This document shows positions 2,625 to 63,359 of a DNA stretch of 64,000 nucleotides, in pieces; positions within the stretch are counted from its first letter, which is position 1, and each line of letters opens with the position of its first letter. A program made the translations under genes and the position numbers. The stretch lies in sequence record EU863408; one strand, given 5' to 3'. A model generated the notes under the pieces. The model made no database searches, was not told the origin of the DNA, and saw only the letters and a program-made list of their open reading frames with translations. Source of the stretch: Escherichia phage JSE.

Positions 2625-2653
2625 ATTATGATATATCCCCGATCCAGTGTCAA
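2625..2653 (-). promoter_or_regulatory. sigma70-type early promoter (PeSL-like cassette)
   Basis: minus strand TTGACA, 17-nt spacer, CATAAT; GGGGA/TCCCC inverted repeat around the -10 box. Confidence 0.6.
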
Positions 2654-2660
2654 CAGATTT

Positions 2661-2960
2661 TTAATCTTTTTTCAATGCATCCATTACTCGCTCTGCGATC
2701 AGTTCTCGTAAGCACTGATAACCATGATATTTGATGGCAATGTCACGCAGATCATTAACCAGTTCCCGTACTTCATGGTCTTTCAGATCGTCTCTGTATT
2801 TCGATTTAACCGTGTCTTTAGGTGGATTGTGGATAACCTGAAAACCTTGTTCTGCAATCACTGCGGCTTCGCGCTGGCGTTCATGCTGTACTGTATTTTT
2901 GATCAGGTCTGCTTCCATGAACTTTGCCATACTCATCATCATGTTATTCTTTTTGCTCAT
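2661..2960 (-). CDS. hypothetical protein
   Basis: track ORF 2661-2996; start moved to ATG at 2958-2960 (SD GAGGA) because promoter -10 lies at 2995-3000. Confidence 0.45.
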   Translation of the reverse strand: MSKKNNMMMSMAKFMEADLIKNTVQHERQREAAVIAEQGFQVIHNPPKDTVKSKYRDDLKDHEVRELVNDLRDIAIKYHGYQCLRELIAERVMDALKKD

Positions 2961-2994
2961 TATTAAATCCTCATAAAAGAAAAGGGAGACTCCC

Positions 2995-3022
2995 ATTATA
3001 GAGAATCTCCCTTGTATGTCAA
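2995..3022 (-). promoter_or_regulatory. sigma70-type early promoter
   Basis: minus strand TTGACA, 16-nt spacer, TATAAT, followed by GGGAGTCTCCC inverted repeat. Confidence 0.55.
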
Positions 3023-3582
3023 CTAAAATTTAAAGATGCAAACTCCCCGTGATGAATTTTTGCATATTCATCATATGCTCTAGCGGCTTCCTCCTGAGTA
3101 GCAAACGATCCTATGTATTTTCTGTATCCGTTTATCCTTATTTGTGCTTGCCACGGTCTTTTGCTCGATCCTTTGCGATGAGTAACACCATTATATATGC
3201 TCGTGCACCCGTCCATTTTCTTTTTATTGTACATGTTTTGTTGTTGTGTTGCCTCCCGTAAATTTGGTGGATTGTTGTTTTCTGGATTCCCGTCTATGTG
3301 GTCTATTACCTTAACCTGTGTTCCATATTCAAGAAACCAGACAATTCTATGTACAAGATATGTAGATGTTCTCTTTTTAACCTTATTGTAAACATCTATT
3401 GCCAAATGACCGTAATTTAACTTTTTTGTTTTTACTTTATCACCGACTTGGTAGAAATATCCCTCTGGTAGACCATTAAAAGACGGACTATTTGTTTTGT
3501 GATATAGAACACCTTCCGTGTGTCCAAATCTTCGTTTTAATTCCTCTTGAATTTCAGTATTCCAAAATTTCGCACTTTTCAT
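3019..3582 (-). CDS. free-standing HNH homing endonuclease with C-terminal AP2-type DNA-binding domain
   Basis: 187 aa; HNH core HIDGNPENNNPPNLREAT; AP2-like tail (YNGVT...WQAQI...GSFATQEEAARAYD); start 1 nt after gene 39 stop; paralog at 56960-57535. Confidence 0.8.
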   Translation of the reverse strand: MKSAKFWNTEIQEELKRRFGHTEGVLYHKTNSPSFNGLPEGYFYQVGDKVKTKKLNYGHLAIDVYNKVKKRTSTYLVHRIVWFLEYGTQVKVIDHIDGNPENNNPPNLREATQQQNMYNKKKMDGCTSIYNGVTHRKGSSKRPWQAQIRINGYRKYIGSFATQEEAARAYDEYAKIHHGEFASLNFS

Positions 3583-3583
3583 A

Positions 3584-5407
3584 TTATGACGCCATCCATG
3601 CCTTCCTCATGTCTGAATCTTCACTATAGAGCAAATCGAATAGCTCTTTATAGTTTTCCGGTAACGTGATGATCTCCATGACAGGATCGTTGATCACGCG
3701 ATGATAGTCTGATTCTGTGAGCGATGCTAAACCTTTGATATATCGAATGTTGTAACCTTTGATATTATCTCGGTCGTTCTCGAAATCTTCTAGGTCATAA
3801 TACCATCGAACATCATCACCTTTCTTTGGTTCAGCAATGATAATAGGTGTTTTGATAAACCGGATTCGTCCATCTTCGAACAATTCAGGCCAACGTGCAA
3901 AGAAAGAGATCAGACTAGGTTTAATAGACCCGATCCCGTCAGTATCAGCGTCGGTCATAATCGCAATATTTTTGTATTGCATAACTTCCAATGCATCAAC
4001 ACCAAATTGCAAGCCAGTGATCGCCATGATGTTAAAAATTTCGGCGTTCTTAACGATCTTTGCCTCCGGTTGTTCCCACGTTGTAAGAGTTTTGCCTCGC
4101 AACGGGAAACCTCCATGTAAATCTTGATCACGTACAGAGATCAGATAGTTGATCGCGGAATCACCTTCCGTCAAAAACAGGGTAGTTTCTGCGTCAGTTC
4201 CAATAAGGTTAGCTTTAACGTGTTTTGCTACCTTAGCCCGTTTTGCTGCCTTTGCTGCCTTAGTCGCTGCCGCTTTATCTGCTGCCTCTTTGCGTGCCAG
4301 GACTACAGCAATAATAGGCATGATAATGTTTTCTTTCTTCGCAATGACTTTAGCCAGCTTTTTAAAATCAAGATCAATATGACGCTTGATATCACCAGTT
4401 GGGTTAGTCAAGCGTTCTTTTGTCTGTGAATCAAAACGAAGGTTAGGCAATTCACGAACAATCAAAATACAGGTCAATCCAGACTTAACCGCAGCTTTAG
4501 TAACATCAACCTTATATTCTTTCTTGATTCGTTTTACAATCTCTTCACAAAGATCATCTGTCACGTAGTCTACGTGTGTTCCCCCGTTTTTGGTAAACAG
4601 ACCGTTAGCAAAGGATACTGATTTAAAACCTTCTCCCTCGACCGCCGGAACTAGGGCAAGTGAAAAGTTTTTATCTTCAATGACAAACGGATCATCATTG
4701 TATAGTTTAGCATAATCCTTGAACTTACTAACAATACGTTTACCATTAAACTTAAACGTGATCTTAGGAAATATTACGCTCAATGATTGCAGACGATCAT
4801 GAACAATATCTAAAACAGAGTTGTCCATCATATAACCTTCGAAGTGGTCGAAGTCTGGGCAAAATGTAACCTTTGTTCCCTTCAATTTTGATGGTTTCGA
4901 TGACCATGTGATATTTTCAGCACCGTTTGTACATTGAACGGTCATTTCTGTTTCGCCGTCACAGGTCACACCAGTAAACCAATCGCTAAAGAAATTTGAT
5001 AACGACGACCCAACACCGTTCATCCCTTGCGTTAATCGATTGGTATCATCAAAGTTAGACCCTGCTTTTGTTCGTGTCCATGCGGCTACAGGTTGCGGAA
5101 TCTGCGTACCCTCTGGGGTAGTAACCATATGTTGAGGAATACCGCGACCGTTGTCTGTTACCGTAACAATATTGTTTTGGATATCGACGCTAATCACATT
5201 GGCAAATTCAAAATTAGTGCGAATCGCCTCGTCTACAGAGTTGTCGATGATCTCATCAATGATTTTCACCAGTCCAGGAACATATGAAATTTTTGTCCAT
5301 TTACCGAACAGGAAACGTTGATGTTCTTCGTAAGTTGTTGATCCTATATACATTCCTGCACGCTTAAGGACATGCTCACGATCAGATAAAATGCGAAACT
5401 CACTCAT
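3584..5407 (-). CDS. 39: DNA topoisomerase II large subunit (GyrB-like), gene 39 fused with gene-60 region
   Basis: 607 aa; N-terminus MSEFRILSDREHVLKRAGMYIGS; GHKL ATPase and TOPRIM motifs; one continuous ORF through the region that T4 encodes as gene 60. Confidence 0.9.
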   Translation of the reverse strand: MSEFRILSDREHVLKRAGMYIGSTTYEEHQRFLFGKWTKISYVPGLVKIIDEIIDNSVDEAIRTNFEFANVISVDIQNNIVTVTDNGRGIPQHMVTTPEGTQIPQPVAAWTRTKAGSNFDDTNRLTQGMNGVGSSLSNFFSDWFTGVTCDGETEMTVQCTNGAENITWSSKPSKLKGTKVTFCPDFDHFEGYMMDNSVLDIVHDRLQSLSVIFPKITFKFNGKRIVSKFKDYAKLYNDDPFVIEDKNFSLALVPAVEGEGFKSVSFANGLFTKNGGTHVDYVTDDLCEEIVKRIKKEYKVDVTKAAVKSGLTCILIVRELPNLRFDSQTKERLTNPTGDIKRHIDLDFKKLAKVIAKKENIIMPIIAVVLARKEAADKAAATKAAKAAKRAKVAKHVKANLIGTDAETTLFLTEGDSAINYLISVRDQDLHGGFPLRGKTLTTWEQPEAKIVKNAEIFNIMAITGLQFGVDALEVMQYKNIAIMTDADTDGIGSIKPSLISFFARWPELFEDGRIRFIKTPIIIAEPKKGDDVRWYYDLEDFENDRDNIKGYNIRYIKGLASLTESDYHRVINDPVMEIITLPENYKELFDLLYSEDSDMRKAWMAS

Positions 5408-5510
5408 TATTAAACCTCTTCATAACATAACCATAACTTACTGCAACCGCCACAAAGACGGCTGCAACAATCATATTAAAAATTGAGTGATTGTCAAGTA
5501 TATGACTCAT
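5400..5510 (-). CDS. small hydrophobic ORF (36 aa)
   Basis: hand-translated; ATGA overlap with upstream gene, stop overlaps gene 39 start; one predicted TM segment. Confidence 0.3.
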   Translation of the reverse strand: MSHILDNHSIFNMIVAAVFVAVAVSYGYVMKRFNNE

Positions 5511-8479: not shown

Positions 8480-9234
8480 TATAAACCTACCTTCGCTTTC
8501 ATCAATTCAATCCACGACGCATCAATCGGAAGCCCGTATTTCACGCGTTCTTTTTGTGCTGGCGTTAAGTTCTCATACTTAGAAAGAGATTCAATCAAAA
8601 CGCTGGTATATTTTAGCACGACTTCGGTATTGTTTGCAATAGCCTTAAGTTTTTCTTCTTTCTTGTTGATTTCGCTAAGGGCTTGCTTGAGATCTGCAAT
8701 TTTCTGATAACGTTCTTCCATACGGAAGAGAGTATTTTTAATAGCTCGCTCGACTGCCTCTGCTTTCTCCGGTTCGTTGTGCTTTTTGTGGCGCTCGATT
8801 GCCAATTTCTTTTCTTCGATTGCTATTTCCTGATTTTTGATGCGATTCTCGTTAAGTTCGATCCACTCTATGTACTTCGCACGTAGGGCAATTTCATCAT
8901 CAGAAAGTTTACCGTTAGTTCCTAGTTCCTGGATCTCTTTAAGAGATTCGATAGTGTGATTGCCACGGAAAGAATTGTATTTCAGTTTAACCGGAATTAC
9001 ATTGCCATCAACATATCCCAGATTGCAATCAATGCGCTCTAAGGAGAGTCCATCATCACCTTCACCGAAAGCCTCACCGGAATAGGCGCAATGAGTCTGT
9101 CGGTAAATGTTACGCACAGTGACTAAGCTCATAGAGAAGTCTTTGTTGCGACGTGAAGCACCAGCCATGATAGAGTTCAGACGGAAAACAACCAGCGCCA
9201 ATTCTTCGTTAGATTTAAAAGCAAACAGTTTCAT
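8479..9234 (-). CDS. srd: Srd-like protein (putative sigma-factor decoy)
   Basis: 251 aa; size and position downstream of dda as T4 srd; coiled-coil C-terminus; not verified by alignment. Confidence 0.5.
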   Translation of the reverse strand: MKLFAFKSNEELALVVFRLNSIMAGASRRNKDFSMSLVTVRNIYRQTHCAYSGEAFGEGDDGLSLERIDCNLGYVDGNVIPVKLKYNSFRGNHTIESLKEIQELGTNGKLSDDEIALRAKYIEWIELNENRIKNQEIAIEEKKLAIERHKKHNEPEKAEAVERAIKNTLFRMEERYQKIADLKQALSEINKKEEKLKAIANNTEVVLKYTSVLIESLSKYENLTPAQKERVKYGLPIDASWIELMKAKVGL

Positions 9235-9262
9235 AATTGATTCTCCTTAGTTGGTATGTGTG

Positions 9263-9292
9263 TATTATTGTCTATCTGGTTTGTGCTGTCAA
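9263..9292 (-). promoter_or_regulatory. sigma70-type early promoter
   Basis: minus strand TTGACA, 17-18-nt spacer, AATAAT/ATAATA; then AAGGAGAATCAA-ATG. Confidence 0.5.
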
Positions 9293-9295
9293 CAC

Positions 9296-9799
9296 TTAAA
9301 TTAAAGAAAATTTGTAAATCTCTATCAGATCGCCATTACACGCGTAAACTTCCTCGATCTCATCAAGGATCATGGTCGTCCCTGTCTTGTATATGCATTC
9401 GCGCTCATCTGCCAACATAGCATACAAAGACAGTCGAGTAGTCGGATTGTCATACTCTTTAGACACCACTCGGTCAATAGCATGTTCGTAATAATTCATG
9501 CAAGGCTTGGTAGGTTTTATTGCAATAATCTTTCCTGTTGCATAAACATCTGTTGCAAAGTCCTCTGCTGTTGATTGCAGTGGCGTAAAGCTCATAGGAC
9601 GCTCTACAACGAAAGAATCACCTACAATTAAGGTATCCAGCTTACGGCCTTCTCTTTTGCTCACACCGCGATACAAGGCTTCATGATGCACTAACCGCTC
9701 AGTCTTTTCAATCAATCCATTAAGGATCGACATATCGATATTTTCTTTAGAGTTCATCACTTCATCAATGATGTTAAGTTCTTCTGGTGTAAATTGCAT
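9296..9799 (-). CDS. ADP-ribosyltransferase, ModA/ModB-like
   Basis: track ORF 9296-9865; start at ATG 9797-9799; R-S-E signature (YRGVSKREG, SFTPLQST, ADERE); T4 mod position. Confidence 0.55.
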   Translation of the reverse strand: MQFTPEELNIIDEVMNSKENIDMSILNGLIEKTERLVHHEALYRGVSKREGRKLDTLIVGDSFVVERPMSFTPLQSTAEDFATDVYATGKIIAIKPTKPCMNYYEHAIDRVVSKEYDNPTTRLSLYAMLADERECIYKTGTTMILDEIEEVYACNGDLIEIYKFSLI

Positions 9800-9808
9800 A
9801 ATAAAAAA

Positions 9809-9832
9809 GCCTCCAATCTTTCGACGGGAGGC
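9809..9832 (-). promoter_or_regulatory. hairpin sequestering the Shine-Dalgarno of the Mod-like gene
   Basis: minus-strand RNA GCCUCC-12nt-GGAGGC then U-run; the 3' arm contains the GGAGG about 10 nt before the ATG. Confidence 0.4.
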
Positions 9833-9880
9833 ATAATAAAACCATTGATTGAGTTTGTCAATCACAAAGTGTATGTGATC

Positions 9881-16811: not shown

Positions 16812-17039
16812 CTATTCAGTTAATCCGTAATACTTTAATTGCTTCATTGTTATTCGATCTTTGTAGTGCTCTTGAATTAACTTTTTCATCGCATCAACAT
16901 TGATCGTCACAAATACTTCGTTGCTGTGATTTCCGTGAACTTTCTTGAAATGCTCTATGCCTTCCTCACGTTCACGTTTAATCTTTTCAATGTCTCTCAT
17001 AGTATATTTCTCACGTTGGCGGGTATCGTCACCCAACAC
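16812..17039 (-). CDS. hypothetical protein
   Basis: 75-aa ORF; the only ORF between uvsX and gene 43. Confidence 0.35.
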   Translation of the reverse strand: MLGDDTRQREKYTMRDIEKIKREREEGIEHFKKVHGNHSNEVFVTINVDAMKKLIQEHYKDRITMKQLKYYGLTE

Positions 17040-17061
17040 CCGCCATTATACACACTTTATC

Positions 17062-18538
17062 TTAAATGTCAAACAGGTCCGTCAGTGAAGCAACTTTTTC
17101 ATATTGCAGCTTCGCAGCCGTGGTAATGTTCTCCAGTGGTTTGACGAAAGTCTTATTAAACAACAAAGGCCAGTCCAACCACTTCAACACCTCTGATTCA
17201 ATTTCTGGCGGAATACGAGTACCAGACAACCAACCAAAACAGATTTCTCCAAACGGATTTCGGTCTTTAAGCGGTACAATCATAACCTTCTCGCCTTCAC
17301 GAATCGGATCTAGTCCGAATTTTCGAGCATTACGATTATAACACAATACACTCTTAACCGCATACGGACAACCCTTAATCGGATACCCGTTTGAATCGCT
17401 GTATTTCTGTAGGTTGTTTGCAGATGATACCGCAGCAACATCAAGATAGTCAAGTTTTCTAAATTCTTGCTCAAAAATACCGTAGTATTCCTGCAATGAC
17501 TCTTCACCTTCCTGCAACATACGGCGAATACATTCTTTCAGTGATTTCTGGCATGCTTTAGGGGTGGAGCTACGTTGCGTTTCCAAGCCCATGATTTTTA
17601 GCTTAGGTTCAGCAAAGCGCGTTCCTTCCATATCCCAAACATTAAGAGCATAACGCTTTTTACCAGTCCAGAATCCACCGATACCCGCAGATTTCAACGG
17701 AGGACCAGCAATTGCCTCACGGTCCATAAACATCAAGTGCTCATAGTTGTTCATGTACTCGCATAACTCGCGATATCCCTTGTCGATAATAGGTTCCATT
17801 CGATGTTTACCGAAATTATCAAGGAAGTCAACAAGTTTTTCGGTATCGTCGAAACGGTCTTCCCCGCCAACCTTATCAATAACATTGTTAACCAGCACAT
17901 AAACGGAGTCAGTATCACAATAACGAACATATGCAAAATCAGTCGTTCCGCAAAGCTCGTTTAAGTATTCGTTAATCTTACGCTCAATCCACTGAATTGC
18001 AAGCTGACCGAACAGTGTGATCGCACTAGCGTTACGGAGATCATAAAAACGGAATTTAGGATTCCCCAACGCACCATAAAGGGAGTTGATCAAAACTTTA
18101 CGAGAAAGCTGGTTTGTATTGCACAAGATCGACTCGTCTTTACATTCTTCCAGTAATTTCTCTAATGCATCTTTACTCAATTCAGAAAGCATCGATTTAA
18201 ACGCTTCATCGAAGTCGTGACGCACTTCAACGCTATAGCTAATGGTTCCCCCATAAACATGATTTTCATCGTGTAGAATCGCTTTACAGAGTTCAGCATT
18301 GCGGTCACATGCCAACATCATGTTTTTGTACTGCTTACGCTGATCGAATACCTTTTTAATCTCAATCGGTACGATACCGTGAATATCTTTTCTATACATC
18401 CATCCGTTAGGCGAGCAAGAATACTCATCACTCGGACGTGGTGCAGTTTTATTGATATACTCGTGCATCGGTGCAGCATCAAAAGATCCGGCGATTGTTT
18501 CCGGCGAAATATTAACCTGACGGATGATTGATGGATAC
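17062..18538 (-). CDS. 43: DNA polymerase gp43, exon 2 (motifs A-distal, B, C; thumb)
   Basis: track ORF 17062-18468 extended in frame upstream to 18538, adding YPSIIRQVNISPETIAGSFDAAP; contains KVLINSLYGALG and YCDTDS. Confidence 0.85.
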
Positions 18539-19002: not shown

Positions 19003-20204
19003 AGGGAAGTAAGGTCAAAGCTCATCATCCAACGGTAAGCATTCGGCACAGGTTCTTTTACGAATGCGCCCGGATAAGTCTGCTTAGGCTGTATCTTGTT
19101 CTCTGGTACTACTTTACCCTCAGCTTTCAGAGATCCGAAGATAATAGCATCCCATACTTTCATCGGGTTATAAACATGGTTAAATTTAATCTTTGCATAG
19201 AAACATAGGCTATACACCAGATCGATAAATCCGCGCTTTTTATCAATCGCCAACACACGGTCAACGTCGCCGATGTTATAATCGATGTAAAGTTGATGGT
19301 TGTCATCACGCAATTTCTTTAACGGACCATCATAATCAACCTTACCGATTCCTGTCTCATATTCAGCAACATAATCTAACGCATATGTTGGTTGAGTCGT
19401 AAAGCTAAATTTCTTGTACAGGTCAATATAATCAAGGCTTTCGATCCCCATGATCGTAAATGCTTCACGCTCGTTGCCAAAATCATCCTGTGAGATTCGG
19501 GATTTAATCTTACCGCACGGGCTTAGACGGTTAGCGGTTCTACTTCCGAACTTATTACTGATACGTTTAATGATATATGGAATATCGAATGTTTCTGTGT
19601 TCCAGCCAGTGAAACCAACGGGTCGGTTTTCCTCAAAGAATCGGATGTATTCTAACAGCAATTCATCTTCTGTGTCATAGACGTTATAAACAACGCGCTC
19701 TACAATATCAGGTCGAAGAATAGACTTGCTAGATTCCCAGATTTCACCGTTTTTTCCTTTCAAATCAAATACAAAGAAACGATCATGTACGGAATCATAA
19801 TGCGTAATTGCATCGATAGGATATTTCGCTTCTTCTGGTTTAGGAAATTCTGGGGCAGTGACCTCGATATCAACCCATGCTACACGGATTTTATTTCGGT
19901 CATATCGAATCTCGCCTTTATACGTATCAGACAGATAGGAGATGATAAAGTCATCCATCCCTAGCGCCTCCTGCCCCATTTCTCCCATCTTTTTACGCCA
20001 TTTGTTGGCCTCGTTCATAGATGGGAATTTTTTAGCAATGCAAGGCTTGCCATAGATATCTTTATAATTCGTAACCATACCAGGCGCGGCATGATGAAAT
20101 AAAGTTGGCGTATATTCAACGTAACGCTCTTGTTCTTGTCCAGCATCATCAATATAACGCTCGTAGATCTTATCACCCACTCGCTCACATGACAGAAAAT
20201 ACAT
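19003..20204 (-). CDS. 43: DNA polymerase gp43, exon 1 (N-terminal and 3'-5' exonuclease domains)
   Basis: track ORF 18996-20234; start at ATG 20202-20204 (SD AAGGAG; MYFLSCERVGDKIYERYID matches T4 gp43 N-terminus); Exo motifs; ends at SFDLTSL. Confidence 0.85.
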
Positions 20205-20236
20205 AATATAAACTCCTTCACTTACGAAAGACACTC

Positions 20237-20265
20237 ATTATAGGGGAATCGACTTAGTTTGTCAA
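20237..20265 (-). promoter_or_regulatory. sigma70-type promoter upstream of gene 43
   Basis: minus strand TTGACA, 17-nt spacer, TATAAT. Confidence 0.55.
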
Positions 20266-21229: not shown

Positions 21230-22203
21230 TATACGAACTCCAATTCAACCATTAATTGCATTAACAAAAAGACAATGTGAATCTCTTTATCAGCCGCGTG
21301 CGCAAACATCTGATTATTTTCACCGATAATCTCAGTGAGACGAATAATAGAAGCTGGCTTAACTTGAGTATACAACTCAGTATAAAGTTTCTTGACAAAT
21401 TGAGCGTATGTATTGGTATAGCGTGGTGCGAGTTTACGCACATTAGCAAACTGTTTAGTTTTAAGTGCTTCCACCACATCGGTTACTTCGGTATTGCTAC
21501 TTTCGATAACCATGCTCAATACGCCAGCATCAATTTTACCATGTTTAGCGTAGCGGTCCAAAAGTTTCATTACGCGCCGGAAGTCTGGGAAGTTCTGCTT
21601 AACCAGTTCCGCTAATACGCGCATTTCTTCTACTGGCACACCTTCTTTATCAAGAATTGCTTTACACCGGACGATCATTTCTTTCATCATGCGAAGCTGA
21701 TCATCTTTAGTCGGAGATCCAAACGTGATGGGGTCAAAACGAGATCGTAACGCTGGGATAATACCTTCTAGATCGTTTGCTGTGATAATGAATGTCACAT
21801 TGTTTGAGTATGCCTCAGAGAAACTACGCAAGTGTCTTTGAGCGTCAGCCAACCCCGCTCGGTCATACTCATCGATAATAACAACTTTGCCCTTTTCTCG
21901 TTTTTCTTCATCGAGTGATACACTCTGCGCAAAGCGTGTAATCTCATCGCGGATAAAATCAATCTTACAATCTGCGCCGTTAACAAACAGATAATCAACA
22001 CCCACATCTTCGCAAAGCGCCTTAGCAACGGTTGTTTTACCAGTACCCGGCGATGGGCTATGCAGGATCATAGAAGGGATTCGGCCTTGCTTAACAATCT
22101 GCGCGAAGATCTTTTTATCTGCTTCCGGCAGAATACATTCAGAAATTGATTTCGGACGGTATTTCTGTTCCCACTGAAACTCATTTTCATTAACACTCAG
22201 CAT
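21229..22203 (-). CDS. 44: clamp loader large subunit (AAA+)
   Basis: track ORF 21229-22218; ATG at 22201-22203 with SD GAGAGGTG; Walker A SPSPGTGKTT. Confidence 0.9.
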   Translation of the reverse strand: MLSVNENEFQWEQKYRPKSISECILPEADKKIFAQIVKQGRIPSMILHSPSPGTGKTTVAKALCEDVGVDYLFVNGADCKIDFIRDEITRFAQSVSLDEEKREKGKVVIIDEYDRAGLADAQRHLRSFSEAYSNNVTFIITANDLEGIIPALRSRFDPITFGSPTKDDQLRMMKEMIVRCKAILDKEGVPVEEMRVLAELVKQNFPDFRRVMKLLDRYAKHGKIDAGVLSMVIESSNTEVTDVVEALKTKQFANVRKLAPRYTNTYAQFVKKLYTELYTQVKPASIIRLTEIIGENNQMFAHAADKEIHIVFLLMQLMVELEFV

Positions 22204-22236
22204 ATAATCACCTCTCACAAATTACATCATTAAAAT

Positions 22237-22256
22237 GGGGAGTATTTACACTCCCC
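22237..22256 (-). promoter_or_regulatory. intercistronic RNA hairpin between genes 45 and 44
   Basis: minus RNA GGGGAGU-GUAAAU-ACUCCCC then AUUUUAA, just upstream of gene 44 RBS. Confidence 0.4.
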
Positions 22257-22268
22257 ACAAACATTATA

Positions 22269-22955
22269 TTAGTCGGTGTAGCTGGAGTCAAGGTCACACG
22301 CGATCATATAAGATACGGTTTCACTTGCCAGCCATACAGCCTTACGGCGAGTGAAGCTCAGTTTGTAATCGCCGAAGTCCGTAGCAACCAGTTTCATGTT
22401 ATCTTTACGAATAAAGAAATGGAAGTCTGCGGTTCCGGTATATTCGCCCATATCAAGACAAAACATCTCATTAGGATTATTTTTGTCAATCTCTTCCCAA
22501 CCTTTGATCATCAGACGACCATCAATCGGTAGAAATTCAAGGCGATCCACTTTAAGCTGATTGCTCATTTTCATAAGCTGTTTCAGATCGTCGTTGCTCA
22601 GTTCGTAATCTACATCGCTTGCAGGTGGAGTAACTCGGCCTTTCGGTGATACGATAGCAGCAGCACTAGCACCAGGATAATTAATTTTCAGACGATCATT
22701 AGACACACGAATGTTTCCGGTGCGGTTATCAACCGTAATATCTGCTTCATCGCCCACCAGATTCAGAATGCCCAGGAAAGAGTTAAGATCATAGATCCCG
22801 ATTTCGTGTTCCAGTTCTTGATTCAGAGTCGCTTCACCATATACAACGTTTGTCATGTTTTTGGTGATTAGGACGTTTCCTTTTTTCAGGATGATACCTG
22901 GGTTAATAGCGGAAAAGTTTTTCAGGGTAGCAATGGTTTCTTTAGTCAGTTTCAT
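22269..22955 (-). CDS. 45: sliding clamp
   Basis: track ORF 22269-22958; ATG at 22953-22955; 228 aa as T4 gp45; N-terminus MKLTKETIATLKNFSAIN. Confidence 0.9.
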   Translation of the reverse strand: MKLTKETIATLKNFSAINPGIILKKGNVLITKNMTNVVYGEATLNQELEHEIGIYDLNSFLGILNLVGDEADITVDNRTGNIRVSNDRLKINYPGASAAAIVSPKGRVTPPASDVDYELSNDDLKQLMKMSNQLKVDRLEFLPIDGRLMIKGWEEIDKNNPNEMFCLDMGEYTGTADFHFFIRKDNMKLVATDFGDYKLSFTRRKAVWLASETVSYMIACDLDSSYTD

Positions 22956-27028: not shown

Positions 27029-27053
27029 AACAACCTCCAATCAATTTTTAGAG

Positions 27054-38876: not shown

Positions 38877-38906
38877 AATATAATCCTCTCGTTGTTAAGT
38901 GGGAGT

Positions 38907-40109: not shown

Positions 40110-40140
40110 AATATAATCCTCTCGTTGTTTAAATGGGAGT

Positions 40141-40169
40141 ATCTTACTACTCCCGTTTCATCATGTCAA
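40141..40169 (-). promoter_or_regulatory. sigma70-type early promoter (PeSL-like)
   Basis: minus strand TTGACA, 17-nt spacer, TAAGAT; GGGAGUA/UACUCCC stem. Confidence 0.5.
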
Positions 40170-41020: not shown

Positions 41021-41051
41021 TGTTGATTCTCCTTCTTGATTAGATGGGAGT

Positions 41052-41080
41052 ATTTTACTACTCCCATTTCTTATTGTCAA
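41052..41080 (-). promoter_or_regulatory. sigma70-type early promoter (PeSL-like)
   Basis: minus strand TTGACA, 17-nt spacer, TAAAAT; UGGGAGUA/UACUCCCA stem. Confidence 0.5.
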
Positions 41081-43933: not shown

Positions 43934-44242
43934 TTATTTCACGTTAACGCCGTCATCAATCCAGCCGACGCTATTTGGTTTAACAGTTTTACCATAGGAT
44001 GCATACTTAATCAAGCATGGTTTAACATCATTATCAAATCTTCCTAAACGTACTCCCAAATCAGGAATATCCATGTATGCGGCTTTATATCCCCATGTAC
44101 CGTATTCAGAATCAATCTCAACCGGACGGCCTTTAAAAGCATACACTACACCGTGACGGTCAACGATAACATAGCGATAGCCAGCCGGAAGATACACAGT
44201 TTCGCCGTAAACTTTAACTGGAGTAGCAGAAGAGATAAACAT
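43934..44242 (-). CDS. hypothetical protein
   Basis: track ORF 43934-44278; start MFISSATP at 44240-44242 with GAGGATTATATT. Confidence 0.45.
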   Translation of the reverse strand: MFISSATPVKVYGETVYLPAGYRYVIVDRHGVVYAFKGRPVEIDSEYGTWGYKAAYMDIPDLGVRLGRFDNDVKPCLIKYASYGKTVKPNSVGWIDDGVNVK

Positions 44243-44275
44243 AATATAATCCTCACATCGTTCATTTGATGCGGT

Positions 44276-44304
44276 CATTATATGATAACCGCATTTTCAT
44301 GTCA
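44276..44304 (-). promoter_or_regulatory. sigma70-type early promoter (PeSL-like)
   Basis: minus strand TTGACA, 17-nt spacer, TATAAT; UGCGGU/ACCGCA inverted repeat around -10. Confidence 0.55.
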
Positions 44305-44312
44305 ACAGTTTT

Positions 44313-44631: not shown

Positions 44632-44910
44632 TTACATGTCTTGCAGTGCATAAAAGCATTTTTCTTCATAGTCATAGAAAATGTCAAAGTATGCTTTTTC
44701 CACATACTCGCCATTAATCCAAGCGGCAGTAACAATCAGAGTGGTCCAGTTAGATCCGCTCTCAACGGTAAAGGTTTTAATACCCAGCTTCGCTGCCAAG
44801 TCGAACGCAAACCGGACGCAACCACGGCAGGAAGTGATATTGGAAGTTTTGATTTTAAAGCCACCGCGAGTTTTAGAAATTTCTACTTTAGCGAAAGACA
44901 GGTTGCTCAT
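44632..44910 (-). CDS. hypothetical protein
   Basis: 92-aa ORF; AGGAGAATCAAA-ATG. Confidence 0.5.
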   Translation of the reverse strand: MSNLSFAKVEISKTRGGFKIKTSNITSCRGCVRFAFDLAAKLGIKTFTVESGSNWTTLIVTAAWINGEYVEKAYFDIFYDYEEKCFYALQDM

Positions 44911-44952
44911 TTTGATTCTCCTTAAGAAAGTGTGTTTCGTTTTGATGTGTGT

Positions 44953-44981
44953 AGTATAGGGGATACGTGATCCCCTGTCAA
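44953..44981 (-). promoter_or_regulatory. sigma70-type early promoter (PeSL)
   Basis: minus strand TTGACA, 17-nt spacer GGGGAUC-ACG-UAUCCCC stem-loop, TATACT. Confidence 0.6.
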
Positions 44982-46737: not shown

Positions 46738-46999
46738 TACATGCTTTTAATGCATCAGTCGCGGTGTCATAGCGAGTATTATCATAGCACCAGTAACCAT
46801 CTGTCAACTGATAAATCAATCCGTCCTTTTTAGCTTCGATGAAAGACAATTCTTTGAAAGTTTCTACTTTCTTTGCTGATACTCCACGGTCACGGCGTTT
46901 ATAGAGTTTAGCTAAAATGCGTTCAGCTTGTTCCTCTTTATTGCCAGACAGATCCCAGATGATGTTTCTTATATGCTTGATTAATTGTTCAGTGGTCAT
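46709..46999 (-). CDS. hypothetical protein
   Basis: 96-aa ORF; AGGAGAATCAAAG-ATG. Confidence 0.5.
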   Translation of the reverse strand: MTTEQLIKHIRNIIWDLSGNKEEQAERILAKLYKRRDRGVSAKKVETFKELSFIEAKKDGLIYQLTDGYWCYDNTRYDTATDALKACNDHLRKTTI

Positions 47000-47028
47000 C
47001 TTTGATTCTCCTTAGTTGGTATGCGTGC

Positions 47029-47056
47029 ATTATAGCATTGTGATTATCTTTGTCAA
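47029..47056 (-). promoter_or_regulatory. sigma70-type early promoter
   Basis: minus strand TTGACA, 16-nt spacer, TATAAT. Confidence 0.55.
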
Positions 47057-47061
47057 CACCC

Positions 47062-47093
47062 AAAAACAAAAAAGGCTATCCCGAAGGATAGCC
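47062..47093 (-). terminator. intrinsic terminator after the glycine-rich protein gene
   Basis: minus RNA GGGCUAUCC-UUCG-GGAUAGCC then UUUUUUGUUUUU. Confidence 0.65.
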
Positions 47094-47100
47094 CATAAAA

Positions 47101-47931: not shown

Positions 47932-48153
47932 TTAGATGATCTCTGCTTCACCATCCAAGAAGAAAGACCATGTTTTGTTAGGATAGCGAAGCGCCCATGA
48001 TTCGGCAGTTTTAACACCAGTTTCGAACAATTGACGGCTGGTCACTTTAGCCATACCATCTTCGATGGCAACGTTTTCAATAATCATCGGGTACTTAGCG
48101 CCACGCATGAAACCGAAGCCAGCGGAAGATTTGATAATTTTAACAGTTGCCAT
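47932..48153 (-). CDS. hypothetical protein
   Basis: track ORF 47932-48207; start MATVKII at 48151-48153 with AGGAGAATCAAAA. Confidence 0.5.
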   Translation of the reverse strand: MATVKIIKSSAGFGFMRGAKYPMIIENVAIEDGMAKVTSRQLFETGVKTAESWALRYPNKTWSFFLDGEAEII

Positions 48154-48192
48154 TTTTGATTCTCCTAGAAAGTGTCGTGTTTCGATGGGTGT

Positions 48193-48221
48193 ATTATGCA
48201 ATAACACCGGATCGCTGTCAA
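48193..48221 (-). promoter_or_regulatory. sigma70-type early promoter (PeSL-like)
   Basis: minus strand TTGACA, 17-nt spacer, CATAAT; conserved CGAAACACGACAC 5' leader. Confidence 0.55.
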
Positions 48222-49207: not shown

Positions 49208-49406
49208 TCTTCACGGTCTCCATAATGGTTTTGTAAGCCAGTTTAAGATGATCACCGAAAAACTTTGCGGTGTTACCCTTCGGATCGCGGAGCATGGTTT
49301 CTACGATCTCATCGGCAGTAACAATTTCTCCTTTCTTTGCTGCATGTTCTACCATATACTTCAAAGTTTCTTCGGAAGCAAGTGCTGCGGCTACTGGATT
49401 AATCAT
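49197..49406 (-). CDS. hypothetical protein
   Basis: 69-aa ORF; AGGAGAATCAAAA-ATG. Confidence 0.45.
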   Translation of the reverse strand: MINPVAAALASEETLKYMVEHAAKKGEIVTADEIVETMLRDPKGNTAKFFGDHLKLAYKTIMETVKNAK

Positions 49407-49436
49407 TTTTGATTCTCCTTTGTTGTCGATGTGTGC

Positions 49437-49465
49437 ATTATGCTATACCCTATTCCGGTTGTCAA
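49437..49465 (-). promoter_or_regulatory. sigma70-type early promoter
   Basis: minus strand TTGACA, 17-nt spacer, CATAAT. Confidence 0.55.
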
Positions 49466-49470
49466 CACCT

Positions 49471-49506
49471 AAAAACGAAAAAGCCACCCTTTCGGATGGC
49501 TTTTTG
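49471..49506. terminator. bidirectional intrinsic terminator
   Basis: hairpin AGCCACCC-TTTC-GGATGGCT flanked by A-run and T-run. Confidence 0.6.
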
Positions 49507-52610: not shown

Positions 52611-53201
52611 TCAATAGCGTTTAGTCTTAAGAATGCCTTTACTCTTTAGATGGTTAGCCTTTTTTAGTACATCATCAGCATAACCTAACCCGGCTTTATA
52701 GTTCCATCCAGCATTGTAAGAAGCTAGCGCGAGTCGGATATTACCGTTTCGAACATCCAGCCAGTATGCTAACTCATCCATCGCGTAGAATGCAGAAACC
52801 TCGCGATTCATGATAAAGTTGATAGTCTGGCGATCACTCATTTTAACACCGCGCTTTGCATTTTTCGCTTTCACCGTTTTAAGGTAATTTTGAAATAATC
52901 CATAAGCATGATGATTTTTCTTTGGTGCTAAGTTTGCACCCGCGCTTGATTCTTGCCATGCGATACCCGCCAGGATGTGACCTAAACCCTTTCCGTTATA
53001 GCGAATATTCGGATGGTCCTTTTTCAACTTACCGCTTTTCTCGAATTGCTCGCCGTATTGATAGGCGAAATGTAAATTATCTAGTTGGTGTGCTGTAAAG
53101 TTGTCTATCGGCGCTTTTTTGATCGGTGCGCTAGTCGATGCGTGTGTAGCACCAACGGCTAGTGACAGACTCAATACTATCGCTTTTAGAACTTTTAACA
53201 T
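52611..53201 (-). CDS. lytic transglycosylase-like (SLT domain) with signal peptide
   Basis: 196 aa; signal peptide MLKVLKAIVLSLSLAVGATHA; SLT motifs AWQESS, GLFQ, YNAG. Confidence 0.6.
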   Translation of the reverse strand: MLKVLKAIVLSLSLAVGATHASTSAPIKKAPIDNFTAHQLDNLHFAYQYGEQFEKSGKLKKDHPNIRYNGKGLGHILAGIAWQESSAGANLAPKKNHHAYGLFQNYLKTVKAKNAKRGVKMSDRQTINFIMNREVSAFYAMDELAYWLDVRNGNIRLALASYNAGWNYKAGLGYADDVLKKANHLKSKGILKTKRY

Positions 53202-53235
53202 TAATTTCTCCTGTTTGGCTTAACTTTCTGATTCC

Positions 53236-53264
53236 ATAATATAGCCCTATCACCAGAAAGTCAA
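53236..53264 (-). promoter_or_regulatory. sigma70-type promoter
   Basis: minus strand AATGCTTGACT (TTGACT), 17-nt spacer, TATTAT. Confidence 0.45.
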
Positions 53265-53714: not shown

Positions 53715-54050
53715 TTATCCTTTCTTAAACAAATTGCGAATCCAGTATACAAACGGGATTTCTTTAAACTTGAATTTCTCTATAGTTAATTCTTTAGTAG
53801 CAAGATGAATACCATAAGCATCATGTGTAACTATATGCCATTTTCTATAGCCCAAATGTGAACAACCGTCTGGATCTAGGTTAATAAGAGTTTCTCGCTC
53901 ACTAGGATTATTTTTCCACAATTTTGTAATAGGATCGCACATAATTCGACCTAGCGTACCATGAATAATCTCACAACGGTAAAGTTTTCCAGCAGTGAGA
54001 TAGGCGCACCCGTCATAGTCGGTATAAACAAACACTTCTTTAACACTCAT
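53715..54050 (-). CDS. hypothetical protein (tandem paralog family C)
   Basis: track ORF 53715-54110; start at ATG 54048-54050 (SD AAAGGAG); DPDGCSHLGYRKW module shared with next two ORFs. Confidence 0.45.
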   Translation of the reverse strand: MSVKEVFVYTDYDGCAYLTAGKLYRCEIIHGTLGRIMCDPITKLWKNNPSERETLINLDPDGCSHLGYRKWHIVTHDAYGIHLATKELTIEKFKFKEIPFVYWIRNLFKKG

Positions 54051-54081
54051 TTTAATACTCCTTTGTTGTTTCGATGGGGGT

Positions 54082-54110
54082 ATATTACTACCCCCGATCA
54101 TGTGTGTCAA
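54082..54110 (-). promoter_or_regulatory. sigma70-type early promoter (PeSL)
   Basis: minus strand TTGACA, 17-nt spacer with GGGGGUA/UACCCCC stem, TAATAT. Confidence 0.55.
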
Positions 54111-59997: not shown

Positions 59998-60324
59998 TTA
60001 GAAAGAAACAGTTTTCAAGAAATCCAGATTTTTAGTACCGAAAACAGAAAAGTAGTGTTTTCCTTTTTCGGTTTTAGAGAAAGCGATTGTCTTCTCTACA
60101 TGGTGACGGAAGCCAGACAGACGATCACCCAGGTCAAGGCGGCAAGCGTAAGTAGTGCCGTTTTCGAAAGTAACCTCGATTTGAGTTTTGTCATATTCGC
60201 TTTCATAGGCTTTTGCTGCCGCTTCCTGTGCTTTACGCTCGAAGTCTTCGAAGTGGAATACTTCGTTTGCGTTAGCGAATACAGAAGATTCAGAGAAGAT
60301 AACTTTAACAGATACTGGTTTCAT
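59998..60324 (-). CDS. hypothetical protein
   Basis: 108 aa; AGGAGTATCAAA-ATG. Confidence 0.5.
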   Translation of the reverse strand: MKPVSVKVIFSESSVFANANEVFHFEDFERKAQEAAAKAYESEYDKTQIEVTFENGTTYACRLDLGDRLSGFRHHVEKTIAFSKTEKGKHYFSVFGTKNLDFLKTVSF

Positions 60325-60366
60325 TTTGATACTCCTTAGTAGTTCGTGTTTCGTTTCGATGGGTGT

Positions 60367-60395
60367 ATTATGCTATACACCCTCTCTCGTGTCAA
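60367..60395 (-). promoter_or_regulatory. sigma70-type early promoter (PeSL-like)
   Basis: minus strand TTGACA, 17-nt spacer, CATAAT; GGGUGUAU/AUACACCC inverted repeat; CGAAACGAAACAC leader. Confidence 0.6.
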
Positions 60396-60817: not shown

Positions 60818-61039
60818 TTATAGTTGATCAGCGATGTAAGCGTGACAAGCGCGGAGTTTCATTAATGCACTACCTTTCACTTCGCCTACGATGTTCATAA
60901 CTTCTAAGCGGTCGGATGGATTCATCTTAGAGCACCAGATCTGGTTAGCCAATTCCAGTTTACTCATATTTGGTTCCATCTCAAACAGTTCACGCTCAAA
61001 GTCGATAATTTCTTTTGCTGCGTCTTTAAAGTTAATCAT
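60818..61039 (-). CDS. hypothetical protein
   Basis: 73 aa; GGAGAATCAAA-ATG. Confidence 0.45.
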   Translation of the reverse strand: MINFKDAAKEIIDFERELFEMEPNMSKLELANQIWCSKMNPSDRLEVMNIVGEVKGSALMKLRACHAYIADQL

Positions 61040-61068
61040 TTTGATTCTCCCGTTTCGTTGATGGTTGT

Positions 61069-61097
61069 ATTGTAGGGGAGTTATCCTCCCCTGTCAA
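61069..61097 (-). promoter_or_regulatory. sigma70-type early promoter (PeSL)
   Basis: minus strand TTGACA, 17-nt spacer GGGGAG-GAUAA-CUCCCC, TACAAT. Confidence 0.6.
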
Positions 61098-61105: not shown

Positions 61106-61291
61106 TCAGAAATATGCAATATAGTTTGCCAGTCCGACAGAGTCATCATTCGGCATTGCTTTTACTGCCAGTTCAAACCCTGCTTCAACTTTCTGTTTAG
61201 CGGATTCTTCGTTATAACCCCAGATTACCAGAATAGCTACTACGTTTTCTTTGCTTACTGCTTTCAGTGCTTTAGTGATGCGACGTGCCAT
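61106..61291 (-). CDS. hypothetical protein
   Basis: 61 aa; GGAGAATCAAATT-ATG. Confidence 0.45.
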   Translation of the reverse strand: MARRITKALKAVSKENVVAILVIWGYNEESAKQKVEAGFELAVKAMPNDDSVGLANYIAYF

Positions 61292-61337
61292 AATTTGATT
61301 CTCCGTTTAAGAAAGTGTGTTTCGTTTCGATGGGTGT

Positions 61338-61366
61338 ATTATGCTATAGGCCGGATCTGGTGTCAA
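61338..61366 (-). promoter_or_regulatory. sigma70-type early promoter
   Basis: minus strand TTGACA, 17-nt spacer, CATAAT; conserved leader. Confidence 0.6.
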
Positions 61367-61397
61367 CAACTTTTTTTAAAAAAAATTTTTAGGCAAT

Positions 61398-61424
61398 AAA
61401 AAAGCCACTCCGAAGAGTGGCTTA
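61398..61424 (-). terminator. intrinsic terminator
   Basis: minus RNA GCCACUC-UUCG-GAGUGGC then UUUUUUAUU. Confidence 0.6.
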
Positions 61425-62490: not shown

Positions 62491-62684
62491 TAGACACCCC
62501 CACGACGATCAATTTCAAAAACTTTTTTACCATCAACGAAGCATGTCACAACTGCCTCGTTGACTTCCGCAAATTGTTGTGTCACCCACTTAAGGTCAGA
62601 GCGAAACAATGTTCTATTAATAACAAATGTTTTACCGCTCTTATCCTTACCCATAAATTTTGCTTTAACCATATCCAATTCCAT
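62490..62684 (-). CDS. hypothetical protein
   Basis: 64-aa ORF. Confidence 0.4.
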   Translation of the reverse strand: MELDMVKAKFMGKDKSGKTFVINRTLFRSDLKWVTQQFAEVNEAVVTCFVDGKKVFEIDRRGGV

Positions 62685-62694
62685 ATTATCACCT

Positions 62695-62853
62695 TATTTG
62701 CTAATCGCTAAACCCAATCCGAAGAGAGCACCCGATGCTACAGTATACCCGAAAGTTTCAAATGCAGTAAAGATATCTAAGCCACCAGCTAACAGAGTTG
62801 CAGTAAACAGAGTACCAGCTACGAACATAAAAGTTTTACCGATAAATTTCATT
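62695..62853 (-). CDS. small membrane protein (52 aa)
   Basis: hand-translated MKFIGKTFMFVAGTLFTATLLAGG...; AGGAGAATCAAA-ATG; promoter directly upstream. Confidence 0.5.
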
Positions 62854-62884
62854 TTGATTCTCCTTTCGTTTGTTTGTGGGGGTA

Positions 62885-62913
62885 TCTTACTACCCCCGTT
62901 TCATGTTGTCAAC
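62885..62913 (-). promoter_or_regulatory. sigma70-type early promoter (PeSL)
   Basis: minus strand TTGACA, 17-nt spacer with GGGGGUA/UACCCCC stem, TAAGAT. Confidence 0.55.
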
Positions 62914-62918
62914 TGTTT

Positions 62919-63293
62919 TTAAGAAAATTTTACTTCGTCTACAATGTCTTTCATGACATTGATTTCCATTCCGGTCAGAACACGTTGGAACATGTGCTGC
63001 ACATACGCTTTCAGGTATTCATTTGATGGCTTGCTATCGAAAGTCTTTTTAGTGTAGTAGTCATCACCGAAAGCTACTGTAATTACATTTTCGTCGTCGT
63101 TCCAAGCGATATAAGCAAATTTGCCGTTATCCCAGAAGCGAGCACTAATTGCTACTTTTGTTGAATCGAATCCTACTTCGCTGTGAGATTCAAGAACTAC
63201 TTGCGTACCAGTTTCTTTATGAATGTAGTAGCGGGATACTAAGTCAAAGTTACGGGTGTAGTGACATTCGAATTTATCTTTAAACATCATCAT
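62919..63293 (-). CDS. hypothetical protein
   Basis: track ORF 62919-63362 (alt start inside promoter); start MMMFKDKFECHY at 63291-63293 after AGGAGAATCAAA. Confidence 0.5.
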   Translation of the reverse strand: MMMFKDKFECHYTRNFDLVSRYYIHKETGTQVVLESHSEVGFDSTKVAISARFWDNGKFAYIAWNDDENVITVAFGDDYYTKKTFDSKPSNEYLKAYVQHMFQRVLTGMEINVMKDIVDEVKFS

Positions 63294-63330
63294 TTTGATT
63301 CTCCTAAGTGTGTTTCGTTTCGATATGTGC

Positions 63331-63359
63331 ATTATGCTATAGTCGTTTATGGTTGTCAA
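63331..63359 (-). promoter_or_regulatory. sigma70-type early promoter
   Basis: minus strand TTGACA, 17-nt spacer, CATAAT; conserved leader. Confidence 0.6.

Follow-up and report, generated by a model that had tools for sequence, protein, structure and literature searches.

The first 64 kb of the Escherichia phage JSE genome (sequence record EU863408), a stretch of 64,000 nucleotides referred to here as the window, contains 25 intergenic cassettes in which a near-consensus sigma-70 promoter, nearly always accompanied by a stem-loop, is followed by a short leader, a ribosome-binding site and a start codon. These cassettes are very probably the promoter-early stem-loop elements (PeSLs) of RB49-like phages, and would operate as compact units of early gene expression. 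Their anatomy, enrichment, strand bias, hairpin excess, arm covariation and conservation in relatives were observed directly in the sequence analyzed here; the activity of promoters and terminators in reporters, the mapping of 5' ends and the occurrence of mini-circles are taken from the literature (PMC2839356; Nolan 2006).

Judged by its sequence, the window is the beginning of a Krischvirus genome, that is, of an RB49-like, T4-type coliphage, and is approximately 97% identical to RB49, phi1 and pEJ01. It starts at the rIIA stop codon, exactly as does the RB49 record, and is collinear with RB49 coordinates 1-61322; when the 8 kb from 43000 to 51000 were used as a query, 95 phage records matched, the best being Krischvirus pEJ01, AV108, KFS-EC, RB49 and phi1 at 96-97% identity. 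Nearly all genes of the window are carried on the minus strand. A search of the entire window with ARAGORN revealed no tRNA, and a search against Rfam at gathering thresholds yielded zero matches, the cassettes corresponding to no RNA family catalogued there.

The original description of PeSLs comes from RB49 and phi1 (Arbiol et al. 2010, Genome Biol Evol 2:140, PMC2839356), for which 51 and 52 copies, respectively, five stem-loop positions and mini-circles were reported, and the description was extended by Comeau et al. 2014. Promoter and terminator activity has been reported from lacZ reporters for PeSL206/205 and PeSL211/210 (PMC2839356), and 5'-end mapping in RB49 is cited by Nolan 2006. 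The cassettes agree with these PeSLs in having a near-perfect TTGACA-N17-TATAAT preceded by an A/T-rich region, in the five positions taken by their G-run/C-run stem-loops and in ending with a Shine-Dalgarno sequence plus ATG, as well as in their location upstream of small open reading frames (ORFs) of unknown function and around gene 43; no structural difference was found. All 25 cassettes align to orthologous, nearly identical sequence in RB49 and phi1. In the GEC-3S record 23 of the 25 are annotated as promoters, and in the RB49 record three are annotated as 'hypothetical early promoter'. A first-pass annotation made from the letters alone had likened the modules to PeSLs, and was right in this, given the shared genus, the full set of defining sequence features and the orthologous loci in RB49 and phi1; the match is supported by features and orthology rather than by a coordinate-by-coordinate comparison. 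Finding the cassettes re-identifies an element already published for this genus, now in another isolate, and very little about it is new.

The cassettes also resemble the early promoters of T4, which are of the early class served by the host sigma-70 holoenzyme, have an A-rich upstream element and C-rich positions -3 to -1 (Nolan 2006), and sit upstream of early genes and small ORFs. T4 early promoters, whose consensus includes a UP-like A-tract and an extended -10, carry GTTTAC at -35, whereas the cassettes carry TTGACA (G at -33) and T or C at -12, as noted for RB49 (Nolan 2006), and the G/C stem-loops of the cassettes are absent from the T4 promoters.

A cassette was defined as an intergenic promoter site with a Shine-Dalgarno sequence and an ATG 25-59 nt after the -10 box, and all 25 (Table 1) lie on the minus strand. 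Across the window, TTGACA-N16-18-TAnnnT occurs at 29 sites on the minus strand and at none on the plus strand, and bare TTGACA 51 and 5 times, respectively. When up to one mismatch to TTGACA/TATAAT was allowed, 34 minus-strand sites and a single plus-strand site were recovered, against a mean of 1.3 in 30 dinucleotide shuffles; with up to two mismatches the counts were 63 and 7, against 10.8 in the shuffles. GTTGACA-N17-YATAAT with at most one mismatch matched 16 times, always on the minus strand, where 0.32 matches were expected. The cassettes also emerged from an unguided repeat search as the dominant dispersed repeat families (D1-D3, D6-D9, D13, D14 and D19). Chance, in an AT-rich genome with short intergenic regions, might be invoked to explain such sites, and a loose promoter scan did return many weak matches on both strands (93 versus 56 expected); this explanation is nevertheless already refuted, and we give it practically no credence, by the 26-fold excess of near-consensus sites over shuffles, the 34-to-1 ratio between strands, the recovery of the cassettes without guidance and their conservation in relatives.

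The recurring minus-strand promoter modules of the first-pass annotation are, by the same strand counts and repeat search, real. Their number, put at about 20, is 25, and the span given for them, 2625-63359, runs from the first cassette, at the low end of its -10 box, to the first -35 base of the last. They had been described as concentrated at 43-50 and 60-63 kb; ten of the 25 do lie within 43-50 or 60-63.4 kb, an enrichment of approximately 2.5-fold. The others, among them the promoters of srd, modB, gene 43, gene 44 and vs.1, are distributed over the window. Further promoter-like sequence was noted at 232-260, 2190-2218 and 390-479. It comprises perfect TTGACA-N17-TATAAT sites within the rIIA coding sequence and, near the rIIA 3' end, two promoter-like sites, one of them followed by the leader-like CGAAACGAGACAC, which may serve the gene downstream of rIIA, outside the window.

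In all 25 cassettes the two hexamers deviate from consensus at no more than two of 12 positions, and the spacer is 16 or 17 nt. An anchored alignment gave the consensus ..aaaAgttG-TTGACA-N16/17-TATAAT (C allowed at the first position)-aC.C.CATc.AAAc, with an A/T-rich region ahead of GTTGACA, and with the spacer leading to a TATAAT-like box and a C-rich discriminator. An A start comes next, and an A/C-rich leader then precedes the Shine-Dalgarno sequence and the ATG. Transcription would be expected to start at the A of CATC, which is 7 nt past the -10 box. The leaders are rich in A (0.43) and C (0.21) and poor in G (0.14) relative to the whole strand (0.31, 0.17 and 0.23, respectively). Of a leader claimed to be conserved, CGAAACGAAACAC, only three cassettes have an exact copy, and a fourth (44981) has it with one mismatch, the looser CATC(G)AAAC start being present in about 13; likewise GGAGAATCAA, reported to precede the ATG, does so in 12 of the 25. 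Stop codons are present in the 45 nt upstream of the cassettes. The genes behind them are hypothetical ORFs in 19 of 25 cases, the other six being srd, modB, gene 43, gene 44, vs.1 and a frd.2/goF-like gene. The cassettes do not behave as transposon-like elements of the miniature inverted-repeat (MITE) or repetitive extragenic palindromic (REP) type: all copies are co-oriented with the genes, none is on the plus strand, and no flanking duplications were visible in the alignments with relatives.

Stem-loops in and around the promoters

In 23 of the 25 cassettes a stem-loop occupies one of the five positions described for PeSLs: within the spacer (four cassettes), across the -10 box with the hexamer held in a 6-nt loop (ten, weakly so in 48221), after the -10 box (three), as a separate hairpin plus T-run ahead of the -35 box (five), or pairing the -35 box itself (one). 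The promoter cores fold more stably than shuffled sequence (z < -2) in 14 of 25 cases, compared with one of 31 promoter-like sites within genes (Mann-Whitney p = 0.006). The arms vary among cassettes yet stay complementary, a covariation reflected in a mean of -13.5 kcal/mol for native 5'/3' arm pairs versus -7.4 for swapped ones. Three hairpins quoted in the first-pass annotation were all located, GGGGATC..GATCCCC at 34510, GGGGGTA..TACCCCC at 54110 and 62912, and GGGAGTA..TACTCCC at 38934, 40169 and 41080. Its statement that many cassettes directly follow an intrinsic terminator did not hold, as only five of 25 stand behind a canonical hairpin plus T-run (35671, 47056, 49465, 61366 and 63359).

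A T-run directly follows the hairpin in only eight of the 23 stem-loops, namely the five upstream ones and those of 3022, 9861 and 22291; the remainder lead into ATCGAAAC or into the -10 box, without a T-run, and do not qualify as intrinsic terminators. Where a hairpin spans the -10 box, its 3' arm coincides with the C-rich discriminator, the last base being at approximately -1. Because this arm lies upstream of the cassette's own start, the hairpin would be absent from the cassette's own transcript, and could act only on RNA read through from upstream or on DNA.

We considered whether the promoter-overlapping stem-loops might not be terminators, but rather 3'-end stabilizers or processing sites of upstream mRNAs, or elements acting at the DNA level, either by modulating promoter opening, with the -10 box in the loop, or as targets of structure-specific nucleases, for instance endonuclease VII or gp46/47. 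The design of ten cassettes, with the -10 hexamer in the 6-nt loop and the 3' arm in the discriminator followed by ATCGAAAC instead of a T-run, would suit such roles, and Arbiol et al. speculate that the GGGG..CCCC motif is a protein target (PMC2839356). We nonetheless judge this explanation unlikely, since eight cassettes employ an ordinary hairpin plus T-run in the equivalent role, which indicates termination as the shared function. Stems of 7-10 bp are, moreover, short for cruciform extrusion. Finally, one stem-loop of the promoter-overlapping kind lowered lacZ expression as strongly as did rrnB T1 (PMC2839356).

Table 1. Minus-strand promoter cassettes of the window, named by position, followed by other features; z, fold stability relative to shuffled sequence; MFE, minimum free energy.
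Feature	Coordinates (strand)	Gene context	Stem-loop	Other
2653	2584..2653 (-)	upstream of ORF003 homologue	across -10 box (GGGGATAT/ATGTCCCC)	leader CATCGAAACGAGATACCACTTAGGAGAATCAAAATG
3022	2958..3022 (-)	upstream of RB49p005 homologue	across -10 box; 13 bp, encloses TATAAT exactly, then TTTTCTTTT; MFE -21.3, z -6.5	GEC-3S ortholog annotated as promoter and terminator
9292	9232..9292 (-)	upstream of srd	none found	
9861	9797..9861 (-)	upstream of modB	after -10 box, before ATG; hairpin + T-run (GCCTCC..GGAGGCTTTTTT)	
17072	16998..17072 (-)	downstream of gene 43, drives ORF025 homologue	after -10 box; GGCGGGT..ACCCGCC	RB49 record: 'hypothetical early promoter'
20265	20202..20265 (-)	upstream of gene 43 (DNA polymerase)	no strong stem-loop	promoter in RB49 and GEC-3S records
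22291	22201..22291 (-)	upstream of gene 44	after -10 box; GGGGAGT..ACTCCCC then ATTTT	RB49 record: early promoter; GEC-3S record: terminator
27082	27026..27082 (-)	upstream of ORF038 homologue	within spacer (CGGGGAGAAATCCCCG); z -3.9	
34510	34437..34510 (-)	upstream of ORF053 homologue and nrdG	within spacer (GGGGATCGCGAGATCCCC)	
35671	35610..35712 (-)	upstream of ORF055 homologue	upstream of -35 box; terminator (hairpin + TTTTTCGTTTT), cassette directly after	families D9, D13
38934	38874..38934 (-)	upstream of ORF057 homologue	across -10 box (GGGAGTAT/ATACTCCC)	second-type ribosome-binding site GAGAGGATTATATTATG
40169	40107..40169 (-)	upstream of frd.2/goF-like gene	across -10 box (GGGAGTA/TACTCCC)	
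41080	41018..41080 (-)	upstream of ORF060 homologue	across -10 box; 9 bp; z -4.9	
44305	44240..44305 (-)		across -10 box; 10 bp	perfect TTGACA-N17-TATAAT
44981	44908..44981 (-)		within spacer (GGGGAT..ATCCCC)	leader CATCAAAACGAAACAC; RB49 differs in loop only
47056	46997..47094 (-)	upstream of ORF078 homologue	upstream of -35 box; terminator 47094-47073, then cassette	
48221	48151..48221 (-)	upstream of ORF080 homologue	across -10 box; weak stem	
49465	49404..49505 (-)	upstream of ORF084 homologue	upstream of -35 box; terminator 49505-49478, then cassette	
53264	53199..53264 (-)	upstream of vs.1	-35 hexamer pairs with sequence downstream of -10 box; z -2.6	
54110	54048..54110 (-)	upstream of ORF095 homologue and regB	across -10 box (GGGGGTA/TACCCCC); z -5.2	
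60395	60322..60395 (-)		across -10 box (GGGTGTAT/ATACACCC)	exact leader CGAAACGAAACAC
61097	61037..61097 (-)	drives two-gene module common to Rogunavirus	within spacer (GGGGAGGATAACTCCCC)	
61366	61289..61423 (-)	upstream of DUF7421 gene	upstream of -35 box; terminator 61423-61402, then cassette	exact leader CGAAACGAAACAC
62912	62850..62912 (-)		across -10 box (GGGGGTA/TACCCCC); z -5.0	
63359	63291..63396 (-)		upstream of -35 box; terminator 63396-63376, then cassette	exact leader CGAAACGAAACAC
Second-type ribosome-binding sites GAGGATTATATTATG	2107, 15672, 38874, 40107, 40735, 44240, 59586 (approximate low ends) (-)			
Free-standing HNH homing endonuclease genes	3019-3582; 9918-10838 (+); 55282-55812; 56960-57535			HNH_3 with AP2, NUMOD3 or NUMOD4 (Pfam)

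Ribosome-binding sites and the proposed action of the cassettes

The ribosome-binding-site type GGAGAATCAA is present in 12 copies, all of them at cassettes, and a second type, GAGGATTATATTATG, in seven, which are confined to the minus strand and of which only three are attached to a cassette. GGAG occurs in the Shine-Dalgarno region of 18 of the 25 cassette genes, compared with 29 of 98 other genes (Fisher p = 1.6e-4). In T4, strong cleavage sites of the RegB/S1 system fit GG*AGRAYARAA (Uzan and Miller 2010, PMC3014915); as in the cassettes, an A-rich tract there comes after a GGAG that is part of the Shine-Dalgarno sequence of an early gene (Durand et al., reviewed in PMC3014915). The string GGAGAATCAAA, found in ten copies, each at the ribosome-binding site of a cassette, agrees with this consensus at 10 of 11 positions, the mismatch being a C instead of an A at position 8. 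The regB gene itself is located at 53288-53710, downstream of cassette 54110. RegB goes unmentioned in the PeSL paper (PMC2839356). The ribosome-binding site of the cassettes may double as an early shut-off site, a role suggested by this near-match.

With these parts in hand, the working of a PeSL as an early-expression unit can be proposed in five steps. First, the near-consensus sigma-70 promoter and its A/T-rich upstream region would be used by unmodified host RNA polymerase right after infection, transcription probably starting at the A 7 nt past the -10 box (CCC-A-TCGAAAC). Second, the G-run/C-run stem-loop may lie in the spacer, span the -10 box, follow that box closely or stand upstream as a hairpin of its own with a T-run. 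Since its 3' arm is in the discriminator, ahead of the cassette's own start, it would form only in read-through RNA from the unit upstream; it would therefore attenuate or end upstream transcripts and insulate neighboring units. Third, the cassette's own transcript would open with a G-poor, A/C-rich and unstructured leader. Fourth, the ribosome-binding site, most often GGAGAATCAAA, would combine a strong Shine-Dalgarno sequence with a RegB/S1 near-match and so give early genes a built-in shut-off. Fifth, since the units share short stretches of sequence, they could occasionally recombine, as a minor source of gene-content change in the window.

Several points weigh against this reading. The start sites and termination in the window, including the exact start position and insulation by hairpins that lack a T-run, are either inferred or carried over from the work on RB49 and phi1, and RegB cleavage is likewise inferred. 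Most stem-loops, lying within or across the promoter without a T-run, are not canonical intrinsic terminators, and with a T-run in only 8 of 23 the terminator label for all of them rests on a single reporter test in the literature, in which Arbiol et al. covered only one PeSL stem-loop (PeSL211/210) (PMC2839356). The modules, first described as nearly identical over approximately 70 nt, proved far more diverse: their mean pairwise identity is only 59% (0.50 for random 78-mers), with 0.75-0.82 for the most similar pairs and no exact match between two cassettes longer than 32 nt, so that the cassettes may in part look alike through convergence toward an optimal promoter and ribosome-binding site, and not through shared ancestry. 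Searched for with one mismatch allowed, the full RegB consensus is not enriched in the window (13 matches versus 10 expected), the signal being one repeated 11-mer, and the RegB of RB49 is divergent (PMC3014915).

Cassettes and gene content among relatives

Conservation was assessed in a seven-genome MAFFT alignment of the window with RB49, phi1, pEJ01, GEC-3S, OZ035808 and Makalu_003, in which the Makalu_003 stretch covers 1-51.8 kb of the window only and the other five relatives cover 60-63.4 kb. Wherever a relative covers a cassette, the cassette is found at the orthologous position, and this is true of all 25; hexamers and stems hardly vary, the substitutions lying in loops and in unpaired spacer.

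In the model of Arbiol and Comeau, the cassettes are mainly recombination linkers, exchange between PeSLs moving ORFs via mini-circles and accounting for much of the difference in gene content. Mini-circles and differential ORFs flanked by PeSLs have been reported for RB49 and phi1 (Arbiol 2010, PMC2839356), and three observations in the window are of the kind that this model predicts. ORF004, present in all six relatives, is missing from the window, with a breakpoint at 2597-2611 in the leader of cassette 2653 and a new junction, CACTTAGGAGAATCAAAATG, that is identical to cassette 63359 over 20 nt. The two small genes downstream of cassette 61097 (60609-61042) are approximately 83% identical to Rogunavirus vB_EcoS-BECP10 (Drexlerviridae; 1201-1635 of the BECP10 stretch compared), the homology extending from the leader CATCGAAACGAAA to the vicinity of the second gene's stop codon; in BECP10 the same leader also stands at a second promoter, driving an unrelated gene. 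Lastly, the neighboring cassettes 60395 and 61366 have 32 identical bases in common.

The alignment as a whole, however, makes linkage the improbable main function. Of 15 indel events relative to the six relatives, nine were homing endonuclease genes or group I introns, five lay away from cassettes and one, the loss of ORF004, was inside a cassette; tallied by location, one was inside, two abutted cassettes (3022 and 9861, both homing endonuclease insertions) and 12 were unrelated to them. All 25 positions were kept, and the five relatives that cover the cassette-dense interval at 60-63.4 kb do not differ there from the window in gene content. At least 20 identical bases are shared by only 8 of 300 cassette pairs. 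The expectation that ORFs flanked by cassettes would be the variable ones mostly fails in the window. Homing endonucleases, introns and short repeats outside cassettes explain almost all gene-content differences in these 64 kb, which tempers the view of PeSLs as mobile cassettes; compared with the PeSLs described for RB49 and phi1, those of the window appear positionally stable. Within six relatives and 64 kb, the alignment is consistent with cassettes that serve as stable expression signals, with a role in recombination that is possible but minor. In having their own promoter and terminator, and conserved boundaries proposed as exchange points, PeSLs are reminiscent of lambdoid morons, Botstein-Campbell linkers and integron cassettes; unlike these, the cassettes have no integrase or attC-like site and point the same way as their neighbors, and exchange would need general homologous recombination.

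The homing endonuclease events include the four free-standing HNH genes of Table 1 and further HNH genes that are present in pEJ01 only, in RB49 only or in pEJ01 plus GEC-3S. Insertions at 3026-3580 and 9847-11257, which touch a -35 box and a spacer, respectively, were entertained as cassette-bounded and rejected, as both carry HNH homing endonuclease genes (Pfam); owing to the latter insertion, the sequence of cassette 9861 upstream of mid-spacer is unlike that of all relatives. The HNH gene at 9918-10838 is on the opposite strand, and the adjoining gene 56 (10762-11286) is unlike its relatives over most of its length.

Gene 43 is interrupted by a group I intron at 18548-19011 (RF00028 match at 18590-19012 on the minus strand, 42.9 bits, E = 1.7e-9, below the gathering score of 50) that is absent from the six relatives. 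The frame of exon 1 ends ...SFDLTSLN at the intron, which we take to be polymerase motif A. The same intron occurs in twelve other Krischvirus records, where it is approximately 650 nt longer, the additional sequence being annotated in several of them as an HNH endonuclease; by this comparison the version in the window would be ORF-less. The six relatives likewise lack a 760-nt insertion in nrdD (36708-37467), which matches a group I intron weakly (27.4 bits) and contains an HNH/I-HmuI-like ORF at 36850-37350.

Four of the five indels away from cassettes (6620, 45814, 46485 and 59799) are flanked by short direct repeats at gene starts or by tandem paralogues, and the fifth, at 49624, is a 60-nt insertion in phi1 only. 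The direct repeats at which small genes were gained or lost span the ribosome-binding site and start region, as in GCATTTCACTAAGCGAGGTTTTTGATATGG and ACAGAAGAGTGAGGAATA..ATGAA, and one event fell between tandem paralogues. A tandem paralogous gene family at 32200-33790 (repeat families D4, D12 and D20) has conserved N-terminal coding sequence and start regions in common.

A probable transcript start shared across phage families

The leader is the only part of this work that may be new. When one cassette was used as a BLAST query, 331 phage records matched; 57 hold a nearly complete cassette (at least 80% of the query) and are of Krischvirus type among the matches listed, and shorter matches extend to other phage groups. 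In phiEB49, Citrobacter phage HCF1, RB43 and Klebsiella phage Matisse, a -10 box is followed by 5 nt and then by CATCGAAA(C/A)GAAAC, and HCF1 has the same hairpin-over-(-10) design as cassette 60395.

The exact 15-mer CATCGAAACGAAACA was found at a minimum of 120 loci in IMG/VR. Among the matches listed, which comprise 103 unique contexts, a -10-like hexamer ends exactly 5 nt before the 15-mer in 82; 22 contexts are PeSL-like units with a Shine-Dalgarno sequence and ATG downstream, and in 74 the 15-mer is followed by a structured leader of TCGA type. A representative of the latter is 100% identical to a phi80 region annotated 'O-L region', and also matches HK225 and HK639; 72 of these 74 contexts fall into 22 different promoter/operator clusters, behind all of which the start is invariant. 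The phi80-type RNA downstream of the shared leader corresponds to no Rfam family, and a search of the literature for the leader motif as a string returned only unrelated primer sequences and, among the papers searched, none with the motif.

In the window, the start C|ATCGAAACGAAAC(A) is present at 60322-60366, 61289-61337, 63291-63330 and in other cassette leaders, and ATCGAAACGAAAC stands at +1 of early promoters, its A exactly 7 nt past a -10 box, in unrelated enterobacterial phages: T1-like Drexlerviridae (Rogunavirus, Lindendrivevirus and Hicfunavirus), the T4-like genera Slopekvirus and Pseudotevenvirus, and, in the leftward early region, lambdoid phages of the phi80, HK225 and HK639 type, where the string is invariant behind at least 22 different promoter/operator sequences. 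It is quite possible, though we propose it only tentatively, that the first 14 or so transcribed bases (A-TCGAAACGAAAC-A, with C at -1) form a distinct functional module whose distribution reaches beyond this phage group. Selection on such a module would work through the host machinery and could favor, for instance, quick escape from the promoter, a 5' end free of structure or the loading of ribosomes or S1; alternatively, phage families could have exchanged regulatory cassettes and the module could have spread with them. Combined with the RegB-type site, it would turn the described two-part element of promoter plus stem-loop into a four-part cassette of insulator, promoter, leader and cleavable ribosome-binding site. 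The ribosome-binding site and the leader look like functional parts, the one as a RegB-type cleavage site and the other as a transcript start common across phage families, and, if confirmed, would be useful for the annotation of early genes and for the design of strong, self-limiting expression units.

Related starts are found at the T7 promoters A1 (..CC-ATCGAGAGGGACAC) and A3 (..C-ATGAAACGACAG). At 150-185 of the T7 stretch compared, the early promoter A2 has TTGACAACATGAA and GTAAGATAC in common with cassette 62912 (TTGACAACATGAAACGGGGGTAGTAAGATAC; 62884-62912).

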